Source: Coleofasciculaceae cyanobacterium CTOTU46641 (GTDB lineage Bacteria; Cyanobacteriota; Cyanobacteriia; Cyanobacteriales; Coleofasciculaceae). From it: 35,947 nt of DNA. Each line of letters starts with the position of its first letter. The stretch's first letter is position 1. Location: assembly GCA_031969515.1 (NCBI GenBank), contig DALYKF010000031.1, positions 1 to 35,947 on the forward strand, in the 5' to 3' direction. This document shows, one piece after another, positions 2,708 to 22,198 of the stretch. The translations under genes were made by a program, and so were the position numbers. The notes under the pieces were generated by a model. The model saw nothing but the letters and a program-made list of their open reading frames with translations. It ran no database searches and was not told the origin of the DNA.

Positions 2708-5700
2708 ATGAAACTCAAGACAAAGTTTGTGTCAGGTTTTTTAGGGGTTGCATCTCTAGTAGCCATATTAGGGATTATTAATATTCAAACAAAGAAAAAT
2801 GTTGATGAACAGTTTAATAAAATTACTGAAAGTACTACTCGTCAACTCATTGCCCTAAATCAGGTCAAAGTTGCCTCAGTCATCATGATGAATGAGGTCT
2901 ATAGCTATGCGGTGATTGCGGGAGAATCCAACTCCATTGCTCCTGTCAAGCCAGGGGATTCACCAGCAGAGAAACAACCCAACTTAGACACTATAGAACT
3001 AGAAAAACAGGCAAAAAAAGACAAAGAAGAATTTAATCAGTCAGTAGAAACTATCGATAAATCGTTAGCGGATTTTCAGACCCTTGCTCAAAATCCAGAA
3101 ATGCAGAATGTTTATCGACAACTATTAACCAGTAAAATCCAACTCGCTGAAATCGGTCAAGAAATTTTAGAATTAAAGGGCGAAAAATTTCAAGCCGGGA
3201 ATCTACTTCGCAAACGACAAGAGTTTGAAGCGGCTCAAGAAAAATTTTTAGAAGTTGTTGATCGCGCCATCAGCGTTAACTTAGAAGCGTTAGAACGTGA
3301 AAATATAACCGCTAATCGCAGTGCGACCTATTCTCTAGTTATTAACCTAACATCCGTCACCGTAGTCATTACAATATCGATAATCTTTGGCATACTCTTA
3401 GCAGAAAGAATAACCAATCCCATTATAAAACTCAAAGAAGCTGCTGCAAAGATTGGAGAGGGAGAATTTGATACCATAGTCGAGATCAAAACTCAGGATG
3501 AACTGAGCATTTTAGCTGATGCCTTCAATCATATGGTCAAGCAGCTCCAAGACACAACCGTTTCTAAAACCTATCTCGATAACATTATCAGTTCCTTAAG
3601 TGATGCCCTGATTGTTCTGAATAAAAACATCAAAATTGAAAGCTTCAATGAAGCCGCTTTATATCTTTCCGGATATCAACCCAACGAACTACGCGGTCAA
3701 GCCTTAGATATCTTCTTTAAAGAAGATAATTTTTTAGGCTATTTAGAATCCAATGATTCCCAACCGAATGGATTTCTAGGCAGACGAGAAACAACCTTCT
3801 TTGCCAAAGATGGCATTCAAATTCCCGTCTCCGTCACCGCCTCTGTGATGCAAAATGCAGCAGGCAAAATTCAAGGAATTGTTTGCCTAGTTCAAGACAT
3901 ATCCGCACGCAAACGGGCAGAAGAAGCACTACGCCGACAAGCCCTAATGTTTGAAACCATTTATGATGGCGTGATCCTCACTGATTTAGCAGGTCGAATT
4001 CTGGATTGGAACCCCGCCGCTGAGAGAATATTTGGTTATGAAAAAACCGAAGTATTAGGTAAAACCTGCGGAGTCGTTTACCAACCCGAAGAATCAATAG
4101 TACTAACCCAACAAATGATTTATGGCTTGATGAGTGAAGGACGCTGGACAAGCGAGATTGAATTTAGCCGTAAAGATGGTACTCAAGGAGTTTGCGAAAC
4201 AGTAGTTGTACCCTTACGAGATGAACAAGGTCAACCCATAGCAGCAATTGGCGTAAATCGGGATATTACTGAGCGAAAACAATACGAAAATCAATTAGTT
4301 GAAGCACGAGAAGCTGCCCTAGAAGCTGCACGAGCAAAAGCTCAATTCTTAGCGAATATGAGTCATGAAATCCGCACTCCTATGAACGGAGTTTTGGGAA
4401 TGAGTGAATTACTTTTAACAACTGAACTTAGCGTTCGACAACTTGATTTTGTCAAAACTCTACAGGTCAGTGGCGAACACTTATTAAGAGTAATTAACGA
4501 TATTCTGGACTTCTCCAAACTTGAAGCGGGAGAAATGCGATTAGATAGCGATGAGCTAAACTTAAATCGCTGCTTAGAAGAAGTCTTAGATCTATGCAAT
4601 CCCCAAGCAGATATTAAAGATTTAGAACTAGCCCTTTTAGTCGATACCGACGTACCCCGATACCTCCTCGGAGATGCAGGTCGCCTACGGCAAATTCTCA
4701 CAAATTTAGTCGGCAATTCTATCAAATTTACCGAAACTGGAGATATTGTTATCCACGTATCTGTTGACCCATCCTCCTCAGCAATTGAAGAACTAACCCC
4801 TACAAACAACCAACAACCAATAACCAACGACCAACAACCAATAAAATTACGATTTGCGGTTAAAGATACTGGCATTGGGATTCTTCCAGAAGACAAGAAA
4901 AAGCTATTCCAAGCCTTCTCCCAAGTCGATGCTTCCACCACCCGCAAGCATGGAGGTACGGGGTTAGGTCTAGCCATTTGTAAGCAACTTGTAGAAATAA
5001 TGGGTGGAGAAATTGGCGTGGAAAGTGAACCCGGAATTGGATCTACATTCTGGTTTACGGCAACGTTTATTAAGCTAGCCGTTGACTCCACTAAAGAAGC
5101 TATGAATCAGGCTTATAGCAGCATTCCTGTTTCCCCTGAATTTTTAACTGGAAAGCGAGTATTAGTAGTAGACGATCGCCCCATTAATCGCAAAATTGTC
5201 CAGCATCAATTATCAGCAAAAGGCATGGAAGTGGATGAAGCGGATAATGGCATTATTGCCCTCAACGCGTTACAAGCAGCGGCTGAAGCTGGAAAACCCT
5301 ACGATGTGGCATTACTCGATATGAAAATGCCTAAAATTGATGGGTCAACTCTCGGACGACTGATTCTTGCTGAACCCGATTGGTCGCGTACAAAATTAGT
5401 ATTGATGACCTCCATGCACGCCGGAGATTCTGCTCAACCTTTACTTAAAAGTGGATTTGCTGATTATTTAGTCAAGCCAGTTAAAGAATCCCAATTACTC
5501 GACTCACTGCTGAAAGTACTCGCCTCTGAAGAAGAGACATCAACCCCTAATTCCTCCTCTTCCTTAACATTAGAAGGAGCGCCCCCTAATCAACAACAAG
5601 ACACCAGCTTGAAAATTCTGTTAGTAGAAGATACGCCCATTAACCTCAAATTAGTACAGCATCAGGTGCAACTGTTAGGACATCACTCAGAATTCGCAGA

Positions 5701-8696: not shown

Positions 8697-9338
8697 CTAC
8701 TTTCGACCAAAATCTGCCGGAATTTCTCCCCAAGCAGCAGTATTCCACTTAAGTATAGGATTAGTATAGTCGTTATTCTCCAGCCAGGTTAACGCTCGGT
8801 CAACTAGATTGAATATCTCCTCACTATCTTCATTTCTCTTCAACTTTGTTTTTACTTTTCGGTTTTTCACCCAAAGAATTGCTGTTTCTGAATCAGAATA
8901 TATAGGTATGTCCTTCTCCTGATTCTTTAAATATGCGAGAGCATGAACGATTGCTAAGAACTCCCCAATATTATTAGTTCCGTGAGGTATCGGACGTTTT
9001 TGAAAAAGCACTTCATGTGTTGCCGTGTGAACGCCTTTATATTCGACAGCACCAGGATTGCCTGAACAAGCAGCATCGACACAGACACTATCCATAATAA
9101 CTACGTCTGTAGATGAAGTAATTGTTTTTGTAGGTTTTCGTTTCTTCTTTTCAGGCTCTTTAGGAAATACTGAAGTCTGTCTCGCAGCTTCTAATGCTTC
9201 TTCCGCCTCACCTCTGGTTTTGAAGGACTTATATAGCGCACCACTAAAACCTGTGATTTGTTCTTCACATTCCTGCCAAGTTGAAAATATTCCTGTCTTC
9301 CTACCCTTAAAAACAGCGTAGTATTTCTTAGATGCCAT
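8697..9338 (-). CDS. RNase H1-type ribonuclease with N-terminal Cauli_VI/hybrid-binding domain
   Basis: 213 aa. The N-terminus YYAVFKGRKTGIFSTWQECEEQITGFSGALYKSFKTRGEAEEAL is a caulimovirus-viroplasmin-like domain. It is followed by an RNase H core with VDAACSGNPG, GEFLAIVHAL and YSDSETAI catalytic motifs. Confidence 0.75.
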   Translation of the reverse strand: MASKKYYAVFKGRKTGIFSTWQECEEQITGFSGALYKSFKTRGEAEEALEAARQTSVFPKEPEKKKRKPTKTITSSTDVVIMDSVCVDAACSGNPGAVEYKGVHTATHEVLFQKRPIPHGTNNIGEFLAIVHALAYLKNQEKDIPIYSDSETAILWVKNRKVKTKLKRNEDSEEIFNLVDRALTWLENNDYTNPILKWNTAAWGEIPADFGRK

Positions 9339-11090: not shown

Positions 11091-11312
11091 GTGAAAGGAA
11101 ACGATCGCCCTCTCATTTTATCTTGGCAATCACGTCCACGGTCACAGCCGTCCAGTGCGATCGCGCTTCTAGTTAGTACTGCCAAGAAAAGCGATGCTGG
11201 GTTTCCTTTTGTCAACTCAGCCTACGGCGGTAGGCGATTGCCCTGGACGGCACACAAGCGATCGCTCTTCATATCGCTTGTTGGTTGAGAAACTGAGTTA
11301 TCGTTTCCACTG
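11091..11312. repeat. Composite structured repeat A1+B2 (about 220 bp, imperfect terminal inverted repeats GTGGAAACGAT)
   Basis: The A unit (11091-11220) is almost identical to 13249-13378. The B unit (11221-11312) is related to B1/B3. The A and B arms are partly reverse-complementary (gtccagtgcgatc.gcgcttc). Confidence 0.8.
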
Positions 11313-11339
11313 TGTTGTTAGACCGTGCCTCACGGAACA

Positions 11340-11729
11340 CTACCGATTTACCAATCCTTGCAGTTCACTGATGTCGATATCGAGTCCTTGACGCTTCAGA
11401 TATTGATTCAGATTGATCTGGATGAATAAATCTTTGAGTTCTTCTGCAATCTCTGGGGGTGGACTGCCAGATAATGCCGTTGCGATTAGGCGTTCTGCGG
11501 CTCGTAACTCACCACATTCGATCGCGAGAGATGCAGCGCTACGATGAAGGACAGAGCGAGTGGGTTCAGCATCGAGAACACTAGCAATTAAATTGGCAGC
11601 TTGGGTTTCTTGTTCAAAGGCTTGGCGTGTTAACTGTGCCGCCTGTTCGATCGCACCTCTTAAACGGGCAACTGCCGCTGCTTCGGCTAAATCCATTGCT
11701 TGTTGGTGAAGCGTTTGAATCTGGTTCAT
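11340..11729 (-). CDS. Hypothetical alpha-helical protein (129 aa), downstream gene of a two-gene cassette
   Basis: Ala/Gln-rich helical ORF. It overlaps the upstream 189-aa gene by 4 nt. No recognisable motif. Confidence 0.5.
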   Translation of the reverse strand: MNQIQTLHQQAMDLAEAAAVARLRGAIEQAAQLTRQAFEQETQAANLIASVLDAEPTRSVLHRSAASLAIECGELRAAERLIATALSGSPPPEIAEELKDLFIQINLNQYLKRQGLDIDISELQGLVNR

Positions 11730-12295
11730 TGAAGTAAGGCTCCTTCGGGATTCTGTTTTGCGCTAACAACAGAAATTGGGCGGCTGAACTCTACCACAAT
11801 GATATAGGCTGGCAACCCTTCTGCATCAGATGCGCCAGTTTGTTCAGTTTTCTGCTTGACTCTGGCATTGATCTGACTCCGATTCCCCTTGCGAATTCCA
11901 GAAACCTCCAATCGAGCCATACGCTGGAACGGCAGCAGTGTGCTTGAATCTTGGCTCCCCAGCCAGTAGTCAAATCCAGTTCCCTTACGAGAACGTTCAA
12001 TCACCGTCAGATTGGTCAATTGCAGAATTAATAGGAATGCAATGCCATAAGCCGCTTGCTCGGTCGTATATTCGTCATCATTCCAGCATCGCCTTGCTTG
12101 TTCCGTAACGGGCTGCCAATCTAACTGGAACCGAGCGGAAAATTCTCCTTCGACTTCGAGGATTACTCCTGGCTCATGGGTTTCATCCGTTAGACAAATT
12201 GCACCCGCTTCTGCGATCGCGGCTCCAAAAGCGGGCGTGATTGCAGGAAGCCCTTGATTAAGGCGTTGTAAGTTTAAGATTTGATACTGGCTCAA
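11726..12295 (-). CDS. Hypothetical protein (189 aa), upstream gene of the two-gene cassette
   Basis: Intact ORF bracketed by composite repeats. No family recognised by eye. A possible D...E-x-K-like region (GFDYWL...RLEVSGIRKG) is speculative. Confidence 0.5.
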   Translation of the reverse strand: MSQYQILNLQRLNQGLPAITPAFGAAIAEAGAICLTDETHEPGVILEVEGEFSARFQLDWQPVTEQARRCWNDDEYTTEQAAYGIAFLLILQLTNLTVIERSRKGTGFDYWLGSQDSSTLLPFQRMARLEVSGIRKGNRSQINARVKQKTEQTGASDAEGLPAYIIVVEFSRPISVVSAKQNPEGALLQ

Positions 12296-12430: not shown

Positions 12431-12573
12431 CAACCTACGGCGAACTTGCGATAGCGAAGCGCTGCTGCGTTCGCCCTTGGCGTTGCCGAAGGCTAGCGCA
12501 GATCGCACTGGACGGCACACAAGCGATCGCTCTTCATATCGCCTACTGGTTGAGAAACTGAGTTACCGCTTCC
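12431..12573. repeat. Composite repeat, B-type unit copy B3
   Basis: Near-identical to B1, with a 25-nt insertion (ttcgcccttggcgttgccgaaggcta). Confidence 0.8.
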
Positions 12574-12609
12574 ACTCTCTTCGACGAGACGACTTGTTAG
12601 CTGACGGCG

Positions 12610-12999
12610 CTACTCCAGACACTGAAATCCCTTTTCCCCCTTCAATTTGCCATCGAAGCTTACGGTTTGTGTGCAACCCGCCTGTCGAGATACCGCCCCA
12701 ATCAAATAGTCAGAGAAATCAGCCTTGCCCTGCTTGTATCGCTGTAGAGCCTGGTCAATCGTTGAGCGGTTTTCAAATTCAAAAGCCGCACTATGCAACA
12801 TGGACTCCAGGACACTGACGATCTCGTCTTTATGAAAGCCATAATTTGCGCCCCTAAGTACCCAAACCAACTCACACAGAACGATATTGGTGATAAAGCA
12901 AGGCTGATTCTGCTGAATGACTGTAACGGCTTGTTGCCATTGCTGCTCATCATCTCTGGTGAGGTATCGAACGAGGATGTTGGTATCAAGTCCAATCAT
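12610..12999 (-). CDS. vapC: PIN-domain toxin (VapC family)
   Basis: MIGLDTNILVRYL is the PIN N-terminal motif. The likely start is the internal Met at 12999; the ORF track extends to 13020. It overlaps the antitoxin gene. Confidence 0.75.
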   Translation of the reverse strand: MIGLDTNILVRYLTRDDEQQWQQAVTVIQQNQPCFITNIVLCELVWVLRGANYGFHKDEIVSVLESMLHSAAFEFENRSTIDQALQRYKQGKADFSDYLIGAVSRQAGCTQTVSFDGKLKGEKGFQCLE

Positions 13000-13231
13000 T
13001 CGCGCCCTCGGAAATGGCAATTTCCATATCCTCGAGGGAAGCTCGTTGAATGTTGGGTCGATGGAGAATGCCGGATAGGGTTTCTACGGCAACATTGAGG
13101 GGAAAAATTTTGACTTGACCTTCGTTGTCAATCACAAACTCGACTCGGCTACCGCTTACCAGCTTGAGATGCTGCCGAATTTCTTCAGGCAGGGTAATTT
13201 GTCCGGTATCGGTAACTGTTGTACTGAGCAT
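12986..13231 (-). CDS. vapB: AbrB/MazE/SpoVT-type antitoxin (VapB)
   Basis: 81 aa. TGQITLPEEIRQHLKLVSGSRVEF is a swapped-hairpin AbrB-type DNA-binding motif. It is immediately 5' of the PIN gene. Confidence 0.7.
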   Translation of the reverse strand: MLSTTVTDTGQITLPEEIRQHLKLVSGSRVEFVIDNEGQVKIFPLNVAVETLSGILHRPNIQRASLEDMEIAISEGANDWT

Positions 13232-13248: not shown

Positions 13249-13402
13249 GTGAAAGGAAACGATCGCCCTCTCATTTTATCTTGGCAATCACGTCCACGGT
13301 CACAGCCGTCCAGTGCGATCGCGCTTCTAGTTAGTACTGCCAGAGAAAAGCGATGCTGGGTTTCCTGTTGTCAACCCAGCCTACGACGAGCTTGCGATCG
13401 CA
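13249..13402. repeat. Composite repeat A2 plus truncated B unit
   Basis: It matches 11091-11225 with about 4 mismatches over 130 nt, followed by cctacgacgagcttgcgatcgcac. Confidence 0.8.
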
Positions 13403-13486
13403 CTTTTTTTCTAGCGATCGCTTGACAATTAAGACAGTTGCTACAAGATTAAAATCATATTTTTCCTATTACAAGACAGCAAGATT

Positions 13487-13639
13487 AAAATTCCCTTTTG
13501 CCTAGCATTTCTTTTGCAATCTCCTTACATTTTTCATCTAGTGCATCCTCGTACTTAGATCTTAATGATTTTTCCGTAGGAATTTCTTCTAACCGTTTTT
13601 TCAAATCATCTGTTTGTGGCTTATCTGAATTTTGCATTT
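13487..13639 (-). CDS. Small hypothetical ORF (50 aa) downstream of the NACHT cluster
   Basis: Read by hand: MQNSDKPQTDDLKKRLEEIPTEKSLRSKYEDALDEKCKEIAKEMLGKREF. It is below the ORF-track cutoff, lies in an AT-rich region, and is weakly supported. Confidence 0.2.
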
Positions 13640-13693
13640 TTTCTATTTCTCATCTGTCAGTCGCTTATAAGCAAGAGCGTTAGTAAGCTAATT

Positions 13694-14257
13694 TTAAACA
13701 TCAAATCCATACCTCTCTTTCAAAAAAGCTCTTGTTTTTTCGTCAGGACTTTCCCCATAGCAAGAAGCAACAACTTCTCCATAATCTTCTAAATCAATTG
13801 ACTCAGTTGAATTTAATGCTTGTAGGAATCTTTGTTCAGCAGAAGGATGGATGAGGACAAAATAATATGCCCAACGTCCAGTACTGTCTTTAGCTTTAAG
13901 CTTATGAATTAAATGACCTCGACTTGCAATATGCCGATTAAGATAAGTATCGCCATCAGATGAGGTCGTGCTGTTTCCTTGATTCTTTTCCTGCTCCCAT
14001 TGTTCTAGTTGTAGGAGTGCATGATTGACTGCATCTCGAACCTGATTATTCTCATGCTCCTTCATATTTTCAAGAATTTTCTTCCCTTCAAGGTTTTCCA
14101 CTCCTGCCAATGTATAGGCATAGGCATCAAGGTCAATTTGTTCCCCCTTGCCAAGATTAAGCTGATCCCGAAGAGCATTCACATCTCCCATCCCAACTAA
14201 GGCGAGGAGACAACGGGCGTGCAAGTCATAACCACTGATGTTCTTCTTTGCCATCAT
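13694..14257 (-). CDS. Hypothetical protein with N-terminal HEAT-like repeat, co-transcribed with the NACHT gene
   Basis: 187 aa. It overlaps the NACHT gene stop by 4 nt. The N-terminus resembles a PBS-lyase HEAT repeat (ALVGMGDVNALRDQL...VRDAVNHALLQL). The C-terminal domain is unknown. Confidence 0.55.
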   Translation of the reverse strand: MMAKKNISGYDLHARCLLALVGMGDVNALRDQLNLGKGEQIDLDAYAYTLAGVENLEGKKILENMKEHENNQVRDAVNHALLQLEQWEQEKNQGNSTTSSDGDTYLNRHIASRGHLIHKLKAKDSTGRWAYYFVLIHPSAEQRFLQALNSTESIDLEDYGEVVASCYGESPDEKTRAFLKERYGFDV

Positions 14258-17004
14258 TCATCTCCTTTGCTATTGATTGAAGTGTTTATGATTTGTGTTA
14301 AGGATGATATGACTTGTTCGCCTCCGATCAATGTTAAATAGACCAAAGCTTCATCTCGATCTTCATTGGTTAGCAAATCATCCTGAAAGGCTTTTAGCAG
14401 TGGTTCTATCATTTCGGGGACAAAACAGCCTAATCGACCCATTGCGATCGCGACTAATTGCTTAGGGCTTTCCGGGATATCTGAAGTAATGAGAGATTGT
14501 AGAACTTGAGTATCCTGCGGACGGTGAATCGGCGTAATCAGGGGTAAATCTTTGTGGGGCTTTCTTCCATCTGCAACAGTTGCCCACTGCCTAATCCAGT
14601 CATCAACTTGATTAAAGACAAGCGTTTCAGTTCCACAAACACTCAAAATCAAAGCCGCCCACGTTCGAGAATAGGCATCGCGCCTATCATCTGTTACAAT
14701 TTGCCGTAAGACCTCAAGTTCTTCTTCATTAAAGCGGTAAGCTGTATAGGTGTGGCATGTCTTGGCGCTTGTTAACCATCCCAAAGCCCACAGCACTGCA
14801 AATGAAATAGCCTCATGTTCGCCGCTCTCCTTTGCGGTTTCCAACAATAAGCCTACAGTTTTTGGCAAGAGAGAATCGGGGAGGAAGTCAATCCTGATGT
14901 TAGAGTTCAGTACTTGGGTTCGATAGAATGCGTTCATTAGTTTAAGTGCTGCATCAGCACGGATTTTGATCGAGTTATTATCCTGTAACTTTGTCAAAAG
15001 AGGCTCCAATATCTCGAATGCATTATCCGCGTTAAGCACGTCACCGCTTGTCGTTGCCATCGAGTAAACAGCCCCGATCCTGCTCCGGCGGTTGCCACAG
15101 TATTTTACAAAGCTTTGCAACATCCGTTTTCGGCATCGTTCTGCAAAGCAAGAGCGCATGAGAGAGTACAGAACTTCATCCATGAGTGTGTTCTGTTTTG
15201 TGTTGAACCCATCCAATCTGTTTAGATTATCTGTAGCTGCATCGATGACGGCATCAACGGTTTCACCACTCACATCGGGTTCTTCGACTAGGGTTTGTAG
15301 CGCAAAGATGGATAAAGCACGAGCTTCCCTTTCAGCAGTGAGAGGCGAAGGGAGTAGCATTAACATTGCATCATCAGCAGTGATACCACTTTTTCCGAAT
15401 TTACCGTCTTTTCGACGAGGTAAGGAACCAATACAAAAGCGAATGACTTCCTGCCAATAACCGGCAGTTACAGGTTCTGTTTTTGTTACAAGTCCCCAAA
15501 AATCGACTTTTCTCTCTGCAATTTCAATCTCATGCACTAGCTGGTGCAAGCGCTGTAGAACTTCTACCCCTTCAGAGAAAATACGACCATTCAGTAATGC
15601 CTGGGCTGCAAAATACTCCTGGAACGATTGATGAAAAAATTGGACTTCATCGCAATCCATTTGGTCTCGTATACTAGTTCCTGCAATGGTTAGCAACCCA
15701 ATCTGGCTGAGAACTAAGTCATACCATTCTTCAGGAGAATACCGCTGTATTCTGCTTGTTGCTTTGTTGGCATAAAACTCTTCGATCGCTTCAATCACCT
15801 GTGACTCTTGCCAGTGTTGAGCACCATCCAAGCGCATCTGGTAAGCAAGGTATTCCAGGTGAGGCAGGATTTCATTATTGGGTTTGCTGACATAGCGGTC
15901 GTCCGAAATAGGACGACGTTTAATCATCAAGTCTACTGCTCGACGATAGAAATCTCCCCTCCGATCACGTGGCGAAATACTGTCTTGGAGCGCTAATTGA
16001 GTGATGAGAGTGAGGGGAAATACGTTTTCGCATAGGGTGGCTACTCTGCGGTCACTACAAACAAAAGATTCGAGAGCATTGGATAGAGATGCCTTTCCTA
16101 GAAATTTTGCAAAGTTCTGAGCAAATTCTTTCTTCTCAGAGCCTCTCAGAGGCGCTACATTAATGTGCTTGAAGGAACGCAGTGAGTCTGCGATAGTATT
16201 GAATCCAAAAACTCTAGAGGTGAGAACGATCGGGATTGGTTCATGGATGTTCGCAATCAGTTGAGCAAGCTGCCGTCGTTTCCGACTGGATGGAATTTCA
16301 TCCAGTCCATCGACTAGAAGTAAAACCTGTCCTTCTGACATTTTCTGTTCGAGCAGATCTGTCAGTAAGCGACGAGGCTCATTAGCGTGATAACCCAACT
16401 TTTGTAGTTGATACTCGATTAAATGGCTCAAACTGCACTCAAAGTCAGTGGCTAGCAGATCGCGACAGAATAGAACCACAGGTATCCAAGATTGATCCGG
16501 TAATGCCGCTTGATTTTCAGAGATTCTAGTCGAATCCTCTGTATGCAAAGGTGACAATGGATGCTTATCGAAATAACTATAAGCCAGAAAACGTAGAAGA
16601 GTTGTCTTACCACAACCCGGATCTCCCACGATTACTAATCGGGCTTCTGACGCTAACTGACTACTGATTTTGCAAACGGTTGGCTCTGGTTGTTGCAAGA
16701 GGTGCCGGATCGGCGATCTATCAAAACGCAAGGCACTCGTAAAGCTATCGCGGAATTGCTGATGAACTTGTTCTACATCAGTTGATTCAAGTTGAAAAAT
16801 TTGGCGCAGTGTAGATTGCTCAACCCGTTGGACATTGGTGGTGCTATTCCTGGCTGATGGGTTGTCTTGTTCAACATCTGTTTCAAGAAGAACGGAATCA
16901 GGGCGAGGATCGTAAGTCAGCAGCAATGGTAAATCGATGTATAGATCTTCGATCGGGAAATCGGCTGATCCAACTTGCTGTTGAATCAACAGTCCAACCT
17001 CCAT
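14254..17004 (-). CDS. NACHT-family STAND NTPase with C-terminal HEAT/ARM-like repeats
   Basis: 916 aa. Walker A is LVIVGDPGCGKTTLL. Walker B is VLLLVDGLDEI. An approximately 130-aa N-terminal region of unknown function precedes the NTPase. The C-terminal region is a long helical repeat. Confidence 0.8.
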   Translation of the reverse strand: MEVGLLIQQQVGSADFPIEDLYIDLPLLLTYDPRPDSVLLETDVEQDNPSARNSTTNVQRVEQSTLRQIFQLESTDVEQVHQQFRDSFTSALRFDRSPIRHLLQQPEPTVCKISSQLASEARLVIVGDPGCGKTTLLRFLAYSYFDKHPLSPLHTEDSTRISENQAALPDQSWIPVVLFCRDLLATDFECSLSHLIEYQLQKLGYHANEPRRLLTDLLEQKMSEGQVLLLVDGLDEIPSSRKRRQLAQLIANIHEPIPIVLTSRVFGFNTIADSLRSFKHINVAPLRGSEKKEFAQNFAKFLGKASLSNALESFVCSDRRVATLCENVFPLTLITQLALQDSISPRDRRGDFYRRAVDLMIKRRPISDDRYVSKPNNEILPHLEYLAYQMRLDGAQHWQESQVIEAIEEFYANKATSRIQRYSPEEWYDLVLSQIGLLTIAGTSIRDQMDCDEVQFFHQSFQEYFAAQALLNGRIFSEGVEVLQRLHQLVHEIEIAERKVDFWGLVTKTEPVTAGYWQEVIRFCIGSLPRRKDGKFGKSGITADDAMLMLLPSPLTAEREARALSIFALQTLVEEPDVSGETVDAVIDAATDNLNRLDGFNTKQNTLMDEVLYSLMRSCFAERCRKRMLQSFVKYCGNRRSRIGAVYSMATTSGDVLNADNAFEILEPLLTKLQDNNSIKIRADAALKLMNAFYRTQVLNSNIRIDFLPDSLLPKTVGLLLETAKESGEHEAISFAVLWALGWLTSAKTCHTYTAYRFNEEELEVLRQIVTDDRRDAYSRTWAALILSVCGTETLVFNQVDDWIRQWATVADGRKPHKDLPLITPIHRPQDTQVLQSLITSDIPESPKQLVAIAMGRLGCFVPEMIEPLLKAFQDDLLTNEDRDEALVYLTLIGGEQVISSLTQIINTSINSKGDE

Positions 17005-17094
17005 CCGCGAATAGCGGTCAGCTTCTTGCTTTAAATATCTGACTAATGCCTGTTGGGTTCTTTCCTTTATCCGTTCCCGTCCGGACGACTCCAG

Positions 17095-17553
17095 TCAATC
17101 TTCAGGCTGAGCACCAAAGTAAAACTTGGCATTTGAACCCGTCTGAATCACCTGAGATTTGGGATCATTCACCTGCAAACCCTGTCCAGTAAAAATTTGC
17201 TGCACATTTCTAGCATTTACCTCATCAAACCGGACTAGGACTTGATAAATCTCTTGCGCTATTGGTTGCACCATGCTGACGAATTCAGGATTCTCCATTT
17301 CCTTGAGCAGATAATCCTGGATTTGTTTAAGTTCTGGTTCAGATCCTTTTGCAGCAGCCTCTAAAACCTTATCGGCTCGTGGTTTTCCTTTGAAACACCA
17401 ATTCCACACCACCTGTCCCAACTTCTGAATTTGTGCAGAGGCTGCTTCTACAAGCTTTTCACCTAATTTGCTGCCTGCACCTTCATAAAGTTTGTCCAAA
17501 ATGATTTTGGCGATTGGGGCTGCTAAGACTGGAGTGATAATTGGATCAAGCAT
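17095..17553 (-). CDS. Hypothetical helical protein (152 aa) immediately upstream of the NACHT gene
   Basis: Intact ORF 90 nt upstream of the NACHT gene on the same strand. No motif recognised. Confidence 0.5.
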   Translation of the reverse strand: MLDPIITPVLAAPIAKIILDKLYEGAGSKLGEKLVEAASAQIQKLGQVVWNWCFKGKPRADKVLEAAAKGSEPELKQIQDYLLKEMENPEFVSMVQPIAQEIYQVLVRFDEVNARNVQQIFTGQGLQVNDPKSQVIQTGSNAKFYFGAQPED

Positions 17554-18264: not shown

Positions 18265-18879
18265 TCAAGGTACTGGATATATTTTGTGATACCTTTCCCA
18301 CCAAACCAAATAAAAATGCCCTTGTAGCTTTATACCCCAAGCTCTGATGGTATTAGCAAATCTAAACCGAAAAGCCGTATCGTATTCTTCTAAACCGATT
18401 TCGATCCACCTATCCTGAGCTTCTTGCACCAAAGTAGTTAGCTCTTGATGGTGATGCTTAGGTACAGTTTTACCACCCTTAGCAGGTGTTTTTTGCTCAA
18501 ATAAGATTTCAGACCAAGTTGATTTTTCCAACAAACTAAAATTTGGAAGTATTTGGGTTTGCCATTCTTCCTCAGTCCAACATCTTTGTTCTCGCCATGA
18601 CCACTCTCCTTCCAAGTCAGACACAGTAGTACACCAAGTCAAGTTACAAGTTATTGCAAATGATTCTTCGCTAGGAAGATATAAAGACTTATTTTTACTT
18701 GGCTCTTCCTGAACCTTAACGACCTTCAAGGAAAGTTCAGGTATTGGCGCTATTTTCACAGTTTTGGTTACCAAATTTTCCACGCTAGACGAAAATCTTA
18801 CCGACTTTGCCTTGCGTGCCTGAGCTTTTTCTTCTTGCCTTTGCTTCCTTCTCTCAGCTTTGGAAGGTTTATCCGTCAT
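18265..18879 (-). CDS. Hypothetical protein (204 aa), candidate toxin partner of the Panacea-domain antitoxin
   Basis: Overlaps the upstream PanA-like gene by 4 nt. It has a basic N-terminus (KAERRKQRQEEKAQARKAK) and a Trp-rich C-terminal domain. No known family recognised. Confidence 0.55.
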   Translation of the reverse strand: MTDKPSKAERRKQRQEEKAQARKAKSVRFSSSVENLVTKTVKIAPIPELSLKVVKVQEEPSKNKSLYLPSEESFAITCNLTWCTTVSDLEGEWSWREQRCWTEEEWQTQILPNFSLLEKSTWSEILFEQKTPAKGGKTVPKHHHQELTTLVQEAQDRWIEIGLEEYDTAFRFRFANTIRAWGIKLQGHFYLVWWERYHKIYPVP

Positions 18880-19310
18880 AGGCTCGAATAATATTCATGC
18901 ATTGCAGCTAAGGGGATAACCTTATCACACCTCTCTGTAGGTTTCAGGTCGCCTCTAGCGTCTTTCCAAGGAGACTCCATATGAGTTAACTCACTTAACC
19001 ACTGCCCACTCTTGTCTTGGAGTGCCTCTAGAACTTTGTCAATAGAGTCTTGTTGATTGGGGGTTAAAGCATCAATGTCCCCATCAGCAAAGGTATCTTT
19101 ATTAACCTTAAATTGATCTCGATGATACCCATACAGAATAGGTACTACAGGACCATTCGCCCAAGCCTGAATATCTTCGTCAAACAAGGGGCTTTCATCC
19201 CAAACAAGAGACCAAGCTTGACTGTAATAAACAAGCTTTTGAAGCTTCATCGCAGTCATTTCGCCTGTTTTAGTTAGGATATATTTCGCCACATCCACAG
19301 CACGTGCCAT
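18876..19310 (-). CDS. Panacea-domain (DUF4065, PanA/SocA-like) antitoxin
   Basis: 144 aa. KLQKLVYYSQAWSLVWDESPLFDEDIQAWANGPVVPILYGYH matches the DUF4065 core (LQKLLYfaqgw...lf.e.feAW.hGPVvp.vY). Confidence 0.75.
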   Translation of the reverse strand: MARAVDVAKYILTKTGEMTAMKLQKLVYYSQAWSLVWDESPLFDEDIQAWANGPVVPILYGYHRDQFKVNKDTFADGDIDALTPNQQDSIDKVLEALQDKSGQWLSELTHMESPWKDARGDLKPTERCDKVIPLAAMHEYYSSL

Positions 19311-19498: not shown

Positions 19499-22198
19499 TT
19501 AAGCCAGAGGACGATCGCTTTTCGGCAATGGCTGTGTTTCTGCTCCCATCGGACTAATCAACCCCTGCGCTGTATTAAACAGATTAATCGGATTTCTGCC
19601 ATCAGTAATCAACACACTTTGAATACCCAGCGCTTGCAAAAGTCTAGCCTGCATTTCTGGACCAGCTTGAGCCATAGCTTTGAGCGTTTCAGAGCCAATT
19701 GCTTCTACTTTTTGTCTAAATTCAGCGCTAGTAATTTCTGCCATCCGCTGCGCTTTTTCAATATCCAAATTATTCAACGCTTGTTGATGCGCTAACTCAG
19801 CTTCCTGTCTTGCTCTTAATTGAGCTAATTCTACGTCCGAGCGAATCCTTGCCGCCTCAGCTTCTTGCTGTGCCAAATTCACCGTTAATTGACCTTGAAT
19901 TCTCGCTGCTTCTGCCTTAGCCCTGGCTTCTGCTGTTGCTTGCCCCGTAGATTCAATGGCGGCATTTTCAGCTTCTAATTCCAACAAATTCTTGCGCTCT
20001 GCTTCCGCTGCACTTTTATCAACAATTGCCTGCCGTTCTAGTCTCGCTTTGGCTTCTTGTTCAATCCGTTCAGCATCATGTCTAGCCGCTGCTTCTTGAG
20101 CATCTGTTGTAATTTGTATAGCAATCTGTACCGACTTTTGGAGACTCTTTAATGTCTCTTCATCTACGGGTTCAACGGATTGGATATCAACATTAAAAAT
20201 CACTAAGTTATTCGTCCTAAAACGCAATTCATCCCGTACATGACCTTCTGCATCTATTCCAAACACAGCCGTGCGAATAATGTGAGCCGAATTGCGATGA
20301 AATTCATCAAATTTTACACCCGCTACCGCACCTCGCACACGGGAAGCGATCGCTTTACAAGCCGTATCTACAAAATCCGGAACTTGAAACAGCTTGGCTG
20401 CTGCTTGTTCATCATGTCGATCCACATCAAAATACCAATTGTAGGATAAACGTAACTGCAATCTGGCATGATCTGAGGTTTCCACCGTGAAAAGATCCGT
20501 CATAAAATCTGGCCCTAATAACAAGGCTAAGGATTTGATAATATGAGGACGTTTAGGTACACTACCCGATAAACTTAACACCGTAAACGCTTCATCTGGC
20601 CCTAACATTACTAAGTCGGGACCGAATACAGTTCTGGCTGTTCTTTCCTTGTAATCATGGATTTGTACAGCGGCATTTTGTGGCACATGAAAGACAACCG
20701 CCCGACTTTTATCTCGTGCAGATGCGGTCTGATCTAGAGTGGATGACTCTGAGATTTCAGTTGAGCGATCGCTCCCTTTACTTTTGCTAACATGATACCG
20801 ACCCCGCTCAGAAACTGGGTCATTTTTGATCGCTAATAATTCTTCAACAATCGGGGGTAATTCTTTTTCCCAAAGCTCTTCATAGGGACTGAGCATATAA
20901 GCTTGGGGACCACTCACAACTTTCAGTTCACCCGTCTGAATATCACGCACATAAATCCCTTCATTTTTATCCAAAGGAATCGCTTGACGTTTTTCAATCA
21001 CTTCCACTTCTACACGGGGAATATAATCTCTGGGGCCAGCAATCATCCACATATCACCTGGGTACCGTTGGATTAAATTATCCCCTTCCCCTTCCCTAAA
21101 ACCTTCTTTCGCTTTGAGCAAAAGTGATTCTTGTTCGCCCAAAACATAAATGTTTTGAATGCCATTTTCCAGGGATTCACCGGGATGCAAGAAAAATGAA
21201 AGTCTGCCTTGGCGAACCTCTCGCATTCCTAACTGAGGTTTGCCCTCTTCATCAATGGGGTTGACAACAATACACCATTCTCTATCTCCTAATGTGGTAA
21301 TTTCTACTTCTCCAACCACCTCTTCATAGACATCAGGAATATGAATTTCGGCATCGGCAAACGTGACTAACCATTCATCACCCGCTTTACGTTGCCGACT
21401 AAAAATATCTGTAAAAGTGCGTTTTGCTCGCAAATGTAAGGCTTTTTTCTCGGTTAAAACGTAAGCCTTAATAATCCCAATTGCTTCCTCATCTACCCCA
21501 GGCAAATAGGCTCCTTCTTCCCTTACTAACCACTCTTCACCCGCTCTACGTCTATTCCCTTGGCGATCGGTACAATTTTGTCGCGCTAATAATCGTAACG
21601 CTTGATTCGGCTTAATTACGGTTGCCGTGACTACTTTGATCACTTCAACTTCAATTCGGGGACGATAAGTTCCTGGTCCTTCAAATAGCCACTCATCCCC
21701 TGCTAAACGGTTGATTGGTTCTGATTGAGTTGCGACTTCATCCGTGACTAAAATCGAATCGGAAAAATCTCTCAATGCTCTTAAACGTAGTGCTTGATTT
21801 CTCTCAACGACTGTCAGTTGGGTAATCTCTCCCTGAACGTCTTCACCAGGATAGAGTGGAAACGGTTCTTGGGCAAAGCGAATTTCAGCATCGCCGTATC
21901 TGAGTTTAATTTGTCCATATTCATCTGTAATCGGATTACCATTTTGATCTCGAAGTACAGGATTAGCAATCACACAATAATAGCGAGGTGGCACTACTAT
22001 CATGGGTTCAGGTTTTAATATTAGCCGCTCATGGTCACGTAGAGTAATGGTTTGAGGGCCAATTTCTAGCCGGGTCACACCTGTATTATTATCTAGAACG
22101 TGAATAAACTGCTGAGGTTTGAGGCGAATTACGCCTGTAGAACTTCCGGCGACTTCCGTTTTACTGTCAGTTTTTCGCTCAGTTGTATTCATTTCCAT
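19499..22198 (-). CDS. Major vault protein (MVP) homologue
   Basis: 899 aa, collinear with eukaryotic MVP. The N-terminal repeat [31 protein letters not shown] and motifs [26 protein letters not shown] and [16 protein letters not shown] are present. The SPFH-like shoulder and the C-terminal coiled coil with GPEMQ...[11 protein letters not shown] are also present. Confidence 0.85.

Follow-up and report, generated by a model that had tools for sequence, protein, structure and literature searches.

A proposed stop-codon readthrough signal may join a small helical protein to a NACHT-family NLR in a cyanobacterial two-cistron locus

Bell/NLR pairs (BASS; 10.1101/2020.01.06.895854) and the Bab/Agp antiphage pair (10.1101/2024.11.07.622273) contain a small helical protein of about 100-115 aa. 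In the Bell/BASS pairs this protein has a MEPIS-like hydrophobic N-terminus and a C-terminal motif of 20-40 aa rich in glutamine, asparagine, and glycine (Q/N/G-rich); in filamentous cyanobacteria its gene directly precedes, and is collinear with, that of a NACHT or NB-ARC NLR. The bNACHT antiphage proteins (10.1101/2022.07.19.500537) have a D[GAS]hDE Walker B motif, exchangeable N-terminal effectors, and a repeat-type C-terminal sensor, and are enriched in multicellular cyanobacteria. A locus that shares these features is found in a 35,947-nt stretch of DNA from Coleofasciculaceae cyanobacterium CTOTU46641 (contig DALYKF010000031.1 of assembly GCA_031969515.1), the whole of which we call the window. 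The locus has three apparent genes predicted to encode proteins of 152, 916, and 187 aa, referred to here as p152, the NACHT protein, and p187. As an initial annotation of this DNA had stated, the three open reading frames (ORFs) have the same orientation, on the minus strand (Table 1). We favor reading them as a two-cistron NLR system with a recoded first cistron and an executioner-type p152, and place the probability of this whole reading at roughly 0.6.

The frame of the NACHT protein is open from the base immediately after the TGA stop codon of p152 and is the same frame as that of p152. In the window the junction reads ...FYFGAQPED-TGA-LESSGRERIKERTQQALVRYLKQEADRYSR-M(17004)EVGLL.... The 30 in-frame codons between the stop codon and the ATG align inside single-chain trypsin-, CHAT-, and TIR-NACHT relatives, beginning at residue 215 of P0011, residue 375 of P0009, and residue 208 of P0008 (for example, QQALVRYLKQEADRYSRMEVGLL against QEALADYLKRETHRHAIMQLPLL in P0011). 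In four loci they are free of stops and indels, and their second codon positions are the least variable. By homology and codon pattern, the 30 codons annotated as intergenic are coding sequence. Gene callers annotate separate proteins here, and on that annotation the locus would consist of three independent genes, with the NACHT protein starting at ATG 17004 or nearby, p152 as a separate partner, and the hairpin that follows the p152 stop codon as a regulatory or processing element (for mRNA stability, attenuation, or protein binding). An ATG does occur at 17004, with equivalent methionines in L001, P0012, and P0014, and Bell and NLR are normally encoded by separate, closely spaced cistrons (10.1101/2020.01.06.895854). 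Against independent genes, the 30 codons 5' of this ATG are homologous to internal sequence of relatives, the ATG is not kept in L002 or L003, and in many loci conserved or essential motifs come before any start; in several, the first canonical start lies only past essential motifs, and in L009 it is within the P-loop. A clear Shine-Dalgarno site with a start codon is present at the 916/187 junction, but we found none at the 152/916 junction. Separate initiation also requires no common frame, yet nearly all loci are in frame. Three independent genes are therefore an improbable description of the locus.

A p152 homologue is always followed by a same-strand STAND NTPase, as seen in 19 genome loci and about 20 metagenome loci. 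The frame continues past the stop codon for at least 300 aa or to the end of the contig in 28 of 35 distinct family loci, and in these 28 the other two frames are closed within 83 codons or fewer. Three of the 35 (L014, L018, and L038) are of a different type. The NTPases encoded after the stop codon vary and include NB-ARC with TPR, NACHT with NCH2, NACHT with NCC-H and NCAB1, and, in the clade of the window, NACHT with HEAT-like repeats. Because these extensions encode unrelated NTPase types, the module, stop codon, hairpin, and linker appear to be shuffled as a unit. Some continuations are short. The stop codon and hairpin are intact in L040 (stop at 3986), L041 (stop at 4403), L024, L026, and L015, with the ORF closing after 20-91 codons; in L041, the -1 frame is open for 270 codons after the closure. 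These five short continuations could reflect decay, sequencing error, or a second recoding event. In L021, the in-frame continuation past the stop codon of the p152 homologue ends after 47 codons.

Alignment of the junction in 34 loci (alignment A2) showed that the stop codon is TGA in 31 rows and TAG in three (L011, L012, and L042) and that the base after it is C in 33 of the 34. Of the rows, 28 continue with a CTN codon and five with CAG, and these five loci therefore have no start codon there. Downstream, the consensus has a spacer of 8 nt and then a stem of 5 bp whose loop, about 8 nt long, is purine-rich (GUCGG-GAGGGGCA-CCGAC). The stem (A2 columns 21-25/38-42) is 95.3% paired, with two-sided compensatory changes at four of its five pairs. 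The whole tested structure is 86.9% paired compared with at most 49% in slid controls, its pairing and covariation score was reached in 0 of 500 shuffles, and RNAalifold independently predicted the same stem. With these compensatory changes, the encoded peptide changes too (SSGGAPTK, SSGRERIK, TEGRVPPK, PPVVDQVK), which argues that selection acts on the RNA. The element occurs as a single copy in the window, and a covariance model made from A2 (R1), run over 356 kb, identified a single site in each locus, also in loci outside A2. Searches of Rfam and of viral contigs returned no match to it. A pseudoknot stem in which the loop GGG pairs with a downstream CCC (S2) is tentative; the alignment-based count looks favorable, and the C-run also encodes a conserved Thr-Pro.

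Programmed readthrough stimulated by RNA structure is a hallmark of eukaryotic viruses. Viral readthrough signals of the classic kind include UGA-CUA, UGA-CAG, and a structure preceded by an 8-nt spacer (PMC13517186). The cyanobacterial junction shares its leaky UGA-C(U/A)N context with alphaviruses (UGA-CUA) and coltiviruses (UGA-CGG or UGA-CAG with a stem-loop), and its 8-nt spacer before an RNA structure with murine leukemia virus (MuLV), in which a UAG and 8-nt spacer precede a pseudoknot (PMC13517186). No stop codon of E. coli is leakier than TGA, and Trp is the residue inserted there (PMC11126739). As with viral readthrough products and the Q-beta coat and A1 proteins, a short abundant product and a rarer C-terminal extension would have a common N-terminus. 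Unlike the viral signals, this one belongs to a bacterial chromosomal family, would act on the bacterial ribosome, has a 5-bp stem, and has no Rfam family. The junction combines an in-frame downstream ORF that is constrained across relatives with a leaky stop context and a covarying 3' structure. From these comparative data we consider it likely that a recoded p152-NACHT fusion is made.

The loci of different type, L014, L018, and L038 (Prochlorotrichaceae-type), have no in-frame arrangement. Their NLR is in the -1 frame, over 322-639 aa, and the upstream ORFs end in ...GAA AAA AAG TAG or ...GAA AAA AAA TAA, placing a dnaX-type slippery heptamer (A_AAA_AAG or A_AAA_AAA) in the correct frame. 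In L018, whose heptamer is A_AAA_AAA, the slippery site is followed by a 6-nt spacer and then a stable stem. These -1 variants make sense only if the fusion is made, which is a further argument against independent genes. In their heptamer, spacer, and stem these three members resemble -1 frameshifting of the dnaX type and of the phage tail chaperones G/GT, and, as with E. coli copA/CopA(Z), the short product would be the N-terminal domain alone. Unlike dnaX and copA, the window and most relatives would use readthrough and not frameshifting. Natural fusions, found as well, are a second, independent line of support for a fused product. In P0436 and P0434 the helical domain with a motif variant is directly joined to NB-ARC and TPR repeats, P0366 keeps an ELKSSGGVPTK linker with no stop, and in P0307 TCA replaces TGA and the stem pairing is lost as well. 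P0340 was considered as a natural fusion with a Trp codon and was rejected: the DNA has TGA (L048, 488-1648), and the gene call apparently used genetic code table 4. Table-4 gene calls of this kind can mask or imitate recoding sites in protein databases.

The in-frame stop codon might instead be a mark of decaying pseudogenes or an assembly artifact, with the junction being either inherited sequence or a recombination joint left by module shuffling. Such an origin could account for the cut-short continuations in L015, L021, L024, and L041, and a junction common to unrelated downstream NTPases is suggestive of cassette shuffling. However, more than 30 loci, whose p152 homologues are as little as about 33% identical, have the stop codon at one and the same position; the ORFs that follow, of 500-950 codons, are intact, and purifying selection on these ORFs is at odds with decay. 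Identical p152 and p187 sequences occur on 6 contigs each, the stem covaries, and stem pairing is lost in P0307, where the stop is lost. Decay or artifact is thus very improbable. We give still less credence to decoding of the UGA as selenocysteine or by a dedicated suppressor tRNA, with the hairpin resembling a selenocysteine insertion sequence (SECIS). A hairpin close to the UGA is indeed the bacterial SECIS arrangement, but UAG is at the same position in L011, L012, and L042, which excludes selenocysteine; we found no Rfam SECIS match and no tRNA gene in the window, and the same junction has frameshift variants and a Ser-codon variant.

The 916-aa protein matches Pfam NACHT (PF05729) with 45.2 bits against a cutoff of 26.7 and NPHP3_N (PF24883) with 38.9 against a cutoff of 24.8, in agreement with its initial assignment as a NACHT NTPase of the NLR/STAND type. 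Its Walker B sequence, LLLVDGLDEI, contains D-G-L-D-E, the NACHT-specific D[GAS]hDE signature that, together with a GxxGxGK[ST] Walker A, defines NACHT (Kibby et al., 10.1101/2022.07.19.500537). The HEAT/ARM-like C-terminus proposed for it is weakly supported: HEAT_2 gave E = 3.5e-5 yet was under its cutoff, and several homologues carry PF13646. We compared the protein with 191 homologues. The closest have the same short form (P0002, 79% identity; P0003, 65%; P0004, 53%), the next tier consists of single chains of 1,100-1,500 aa with N-terminal trypsin-like peptidase, CHAT, or TIR domains, and more distant relatives have SIR2, Mrr, FGE-sulfatase, PNP, or metallophosphatase domains. This set shows a family with exchangeable effector domains, as expected for bacterial NLR conflict systems.

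In local alignments, the 916-aa protein aligns from residues about 6-16 with its relatives directly past their effector domains. Multiple alignment showed that the stretch before the P-loop (LPIExLYIDLPL...DVE...RESFTSALLFDR...) is common to the whole family, apart from a clade-specific insertion of about 35 residues that is not in L002. Because this stretch is family-wide, the N-terminal region of about 130 aa that was first taken to be a domain of unknown function is a conserved linker of the NACHT module. We discarded two candidates on this basis. A hidden effector in the first 130 aa is out, since this region is the family-wide pre-P-loop stretch. The sequence QIFQLESTDVEQV in the NACHT N-terminus had been considered as a copy of the p152 tail motif; its DVEQV is present in all family members, the remainder is the clade-specific insertion absent from L002, and the motif hidden Markov model (HMM) gave no match. 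As judged from these alignments, the 916-aa protein as annotated lacks its own effector domain, and a tripartite effector-NTPase-sensor architecture would be present only if the readthrough product is made.

The other end of the NACHT protein is also split. p187 aligns with 41-48% identity (E 1e-49 to 1e-67) to the extreme C-termini of single-chain relatives, and its alignment starts exactly where that of the 916-aa protein ends; in P0009, the 916-aa protein covers residues 404-1275 and p187 covers 1273-1492. The three closest loci share the split, with downstream ORFs of 182-188 aa that are 64-74% identical to p187 and overlaps of 4, 1, and 14 nt. In the window, the overlap of the 916- and 187-aa ORFs is the 4 nt (ATGA) that the initial annotation reported. 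A Shine-Dalgarno-like GAAGGAG (GAAGGTG in L003) lies a few bases 5' of the ATG in all four loci. A frameshift fusion at this junction was rejected since each locus has its own Shine-Dalgarno sequence and ATG and the frame relation varies among the four (-1, -1, -1, +1). By this homology, p187 is not an accessory partner, as had been suggested, and is the split-off C-terminus of an ancestral single polypeptide, a genuine and conserved gene fission with translational coupling. Residues 1-95 align to the C-terminal repeats of single-chain homologues, including TIR-NACHT forms that end there. The rest is an alpha/beta domain of about 80 aa as predicted by AlphaFold2 (AF2), with a predicted local distance difference test (pLDDT) score of 94-97. 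It is 55-70% identical across phyla (proteins P0205-P0301), has no Pfam or PDB match, and occurs elsewhere as a standalone protein of 105-125 aa or C-terminal to TIR, SEFIR, caspase, or HEAT-like regions. These data define a new domain of 80 aa, unannotated and highly conserved, that is linked to effectors of the TIR, SEFIR, and caspase types.

p152 is in the place where homologues have enzymatic effector domains. Its proposed helical nature agrees with the AF2 model, which is a helical bundle over residues 8-121 (pLDDT 73-86). The N-terminus (MLDPIITPVLAAPIAKIIL) is hydrophobic and MEPIS-like, beginning MLDPII in the window, MEPIT in P0181, MPEPIT in P0366, and MADPLIT in P0436, and the helical domain is about 100 aa with a hydrophobic helix 1, as in Bell-domain proteins. 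The tail is predicted to be disordered (pLDDT <50) and is the best-conserved part of the family, with a Q/N/G-rich motif, NA+NVQQIFGGQGLQVNDPKSQVIQAGENAKFYFG, and a composition of 7 Q, 4 N, and 4 G per 40 residues. The family is cyanobacterial, with proteins of about 150 aa (78 members in a 90%-identity collection and 241 representatives at E <=1e-3). Neither p152, p187, nor the 50-aa ORF listed in Table 1 has a match in Pfam, PADLOC, or NCBIfam. The earlier view of p152 as an accessory partner is not supported; its place is the N-terminal effector-module position of the same reading frame, and a conserved, probable recoding site divides it from the NACHT part.

The motif HMM matched only p152 in the window. 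Unlike the NLRs of Bell/BASS pairs, the annotated NLR has no copy of its own, and a motif shared by effector and NLR would exist here only in the readthrough product. In Phormidium tanganyikae (L021 and L022), the Q/N/G motif is at the N-termini of three NB-ARC/TPR NLR paralogues, and a 501-aa TIR-motif-CHAT protein and a p152 homologue are encoded beside them (L021 5453-8384; L022 7224-13661). A motif common to NLR N-termini and TIR/CHAT proteins, as in this one related genome, is the defining Bell/BASS arrangement (10.1101/2020.01.06.895854). In contrast to Bell/BASS, where the partners are separate, most loci described here have one frame split by a leaky stop codon and hairpin, or, in some relatives, by a -1 slippery site. 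The NLR would gain the whole module by recoding, so that the motifs of sensor and effector would be identical because they come from the same DNA. The system would likewise differ from bNACHT proteins, which are single polypeptides, in gaining its effector module through recoding and in having its C-terminus made from a second cistron.

We propose that most ribosomes stop at the UGA-C and release abundant free p152, consisting of a Bell/HeLo-like helical domain and a Q/N/G-rich tail of about 35 aa. Some ribosomes would read through, stimulated by the leaky UGA-C and the hairpin 8 nt downstream, to make a fusion of about 1,099 aa in which the helical domain and motif form the N-terminal effector or adaptor of a NACHT protein with a HEAT-like sensor. 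p187, carrying the last sensor repeats and the 80-aa domain, would be made separately by Shine-Dalgarno-dependent translational coupling and presumably re-joins the sensor. A trigger would then cause the NACHT domains to oligomerize and the N-terminal modules to cluster, the shared motif would nucleate a templated, amyloid-like homotypic assembly that draws in excess free p152, and the helical domains would attack the membrane, leading to abortive infection or regulated cell death. Amyloid behavior, membrane activity, and a defense role are inferred. By analogy with Bell/BASS, Bab/Agp, HET-S/NWD2, and CC-NLRs, we rate motif-templated recruitment of free p152 leading to membrane damage and cell death as slightly less likely than not. 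In HET-S/NWD2 and the plant CC-NLR ZAR1, an NLR controls an N-terminal or partner helical domain that causes cell death and is proposed to insert its first helix into the membrane; the likeness is an analogy only. The HET-S/NWD2 pair shares an amyloid motif; unlike the readthrough fusion proposed here, the NWD2 sensor has the motif alone and not the killing domain.

The recoding may be real while the helical domain and motif act as an adaptor or regulator and not as an executioner. Free p152 would then be a decoy, like CARD-only or PYD-only proteins, that caps the N-terminal module of the NLR, or it would form a signaling filament, and the true effector would be elsewhere, for example in the C-terminal domain of p187 or in a motif-bearing protein acting in trans. 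The p152 module is N-terminally fused in other proteins to bona fide effectors or sensors (TIR, CHAT with TRADD-N and TIR, a DUF900 hydrolase, and GUN4), a pattern known for effector-associated adaptor domains (PMC7159879), and because of these fusions the executioner and adaptor roles both fit. The co-occurrence of the p187 C-terminal domain with TIR, SEFIR, and caspase domains and the absence of a structural match between the module and pore-forming domains are also in keeping with an adaptor. On the other side, the window locus encodes no other recognizable effector, the module has a MEPIS-like hydrophobic N-terminal helix, and it occupies the exact position of the enzymatic effector domains of homologues. 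We therefore regard an adaptor role as somewhat unlikely and prefer p152 as an executioner.

Several observations weigh against a recoded system with an executioner p152. Translation past the stop codon is a prediction from sequence, and to our knowledge there is hardly any record of readthrough stimulated by structure in bacterial chromosomal genes. The hairpin is small (5 bp), folding z-scores of single sequences are non-significant, and in a per-sequence shuffle test pseudoknot S2 was no better than controls (mean helix 4.0 versus 3.6 bp). Four of the 35 loci, the same four with cut-short continuations noted above, have the signature and a short in-frame continuation. The helical domain has no match to Bell, HeLo, or Bab structures and models, neither sequence nor fold could be matched to Bell/Babybell, and the TIR, CHAT-TRADD-TIR, DUF900, and GUN4 fusions suit an adaptor equally well. 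Matches of the 916-aa protein to PADLOC and NCBIfam defense models are limited to the P-loop (mad8, E = 5.6e-5 over 37 residues; EruA, 28.7 bits against a cutoff of 1000; Avs2, E about 0.03-0.08), so that, unlike bNACHT, Avs, and EruA proteins, it matches no model past this motif; a search of the PHROGs library was uninformative.

The stop codon and hairpin could also form a regulated switch in which termination fidelity is an immune input, not merely a device that sets a fixed ratio, an idea that we consider quite unlikely. Raised UGA or UAG readthrough would then yield more full-length sensor and tip a self-templating, prion-like death circuit, with phage suppressor tRNAs, interference with release factor 2, stress, or shifts in temperature or pH as candidate inputs. 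Sensor and executioner would share one motif because it is read from the same codons.

The locus lies in an accessory stretch of about 8.7-22 kb that also holds an RNase H1 gene, three toxin-antitoxin-like pairs, and a vault-protein homologue, with core genes on both sides (glyS, a hybrid histidine kinase, M16 peptidases, and mfd). The accessory placement and the adjacent toxin-antitoxin cassettes claimed in the initial annotation are both upheld; the locus is not syntenic, with flanking genes that change between related loci, and is among toxin-antitoxin modules. Its start of the cluster at 13487 is not, as this adds about 200 nt and an unsupported 50-aa ORF. A scan for promoters and terminators gave a result no better than chance. 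Just upstream of the locus, at 19499-22198 (minus strand), is a gene for an 899-aa full-length homologue of the eukaryotic major vault protein, with Pfam matches to Vault repeats (8e-65), MVP_shoulder (1.6e-52), Vault_2, Vault_3, and Vault_4. Between them, at 18265-19310 (minus), is a probable toxin-antitoxin module in which the gene for a 144-aa antitoxin with a SocA/Panacea domain (Pfam 5e-18) overlaps that for a 204-aa protein that matched no family. A VapBC-like pair lies downstream (12610-13231, minus), its toxin a PIN-domain protein of 136 aa and its antitoxin an 81-aa protein of MazE/AbrB type. Direct repeats of 45-94 nt with 89-100% identity, containing GCGATCGC (HIP1) sites, flank the toxin-antitoxin cassettes downstream of the locus (11091-11316, 12501-12581, and 13249-13388) and may be a small mobile or recombinogenic repeat. 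Overlapping ORFs of 189 and 129 aa at 11340-12295 (minus), with an unconvincing best family match to TPR_19 (E = 0.017), may form a further two-gene module. The RNase H1, with an N-terminal Cauli_VI/hybrid-binding domain, is encoded at the edge of the accessory region (8697-9338, minus).

Table 1. Positions of features of the locus in the window.
Feature	Position	Strand	Remarks
p152 ORF	17095..17553	minus	152 aa
p152 residues 1-112	17218..17553	minus	helical domain
p152 residues 113-152	17098..17217	minus	Q/N/G-rich motif NARNVQQIFTGQGLQVNDPKSQVIQTGSNAKFYFGAQPED
Proposed recoded stop codon	17095..17097	minus	TGA, then C
30 in-frame codons (LESSGRERIKERTQQALVRYLKQEADRYSR)	17005..17094	minus	annotated as intergenic; proposed to be translated only by readthrough
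8-nt spacer	17087-17094	minus	CUGGAGUC
Hairpin	17069-17086	minus	GUCCG / loop GACGGGAA / CGGAU; whole signal 17069..17094
NACHT ORF	14254..17004	minus	916 aa
NACHT NTPase domain	about 16114-16674	minus	Pfam
Walker A	16600-16626	minus	GDPGCGKTT, residues 127-135
Walker B	16294-16323	minus	LLLVDGLDEI (VDGLDE within), residues 228-237
HEAT matches within the helical HEAT-like C-terminal region	14653-15042	minus	weak HEAT matches
Coupling junction	14254..14275	minus	Shine-Dalgarno-like AAGGAG, then ATGATG overlapping the NACHT stop (ATGA)
p187 ORF	13694..14257	minus	187 aa
p187 residues 1-95	13973..14257	minus	last HEAT-like helical repeats of the sensor
p187 residues about 102-187	13694..13954	minus	alpha/beta domain of about 80 aa, GHLIHKLKAKDSTGRWAYYFVL...YGE.P...LKERYGFDV
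50-aa ORF	13485..13637		without support

In a non-exhaustive literature search, we found no description of readthrough, frameshifting, or in-frame stops in bacterial NLRs, Bell/BASS, or cyanobacterial genes. The element at the p152 stop codon is a compact bacterial candidate readthrough signal that is defined by covariation and is directly testable. It also points to a blind spot in annotation, in that such NLRs are called effector-less and given arbitrary starts, some within the P-loop. A cyanobacterial NLR family that includes both NACHT and NB-ARC members, with at least 35 loci, appears to depend on readthrough, with a frameshift variant in some members. Since the same codons would encode both, this might account for the way in which an NLR and its death effector retain matching homotypic, amyloid-type motifs and a set stoichiometry.

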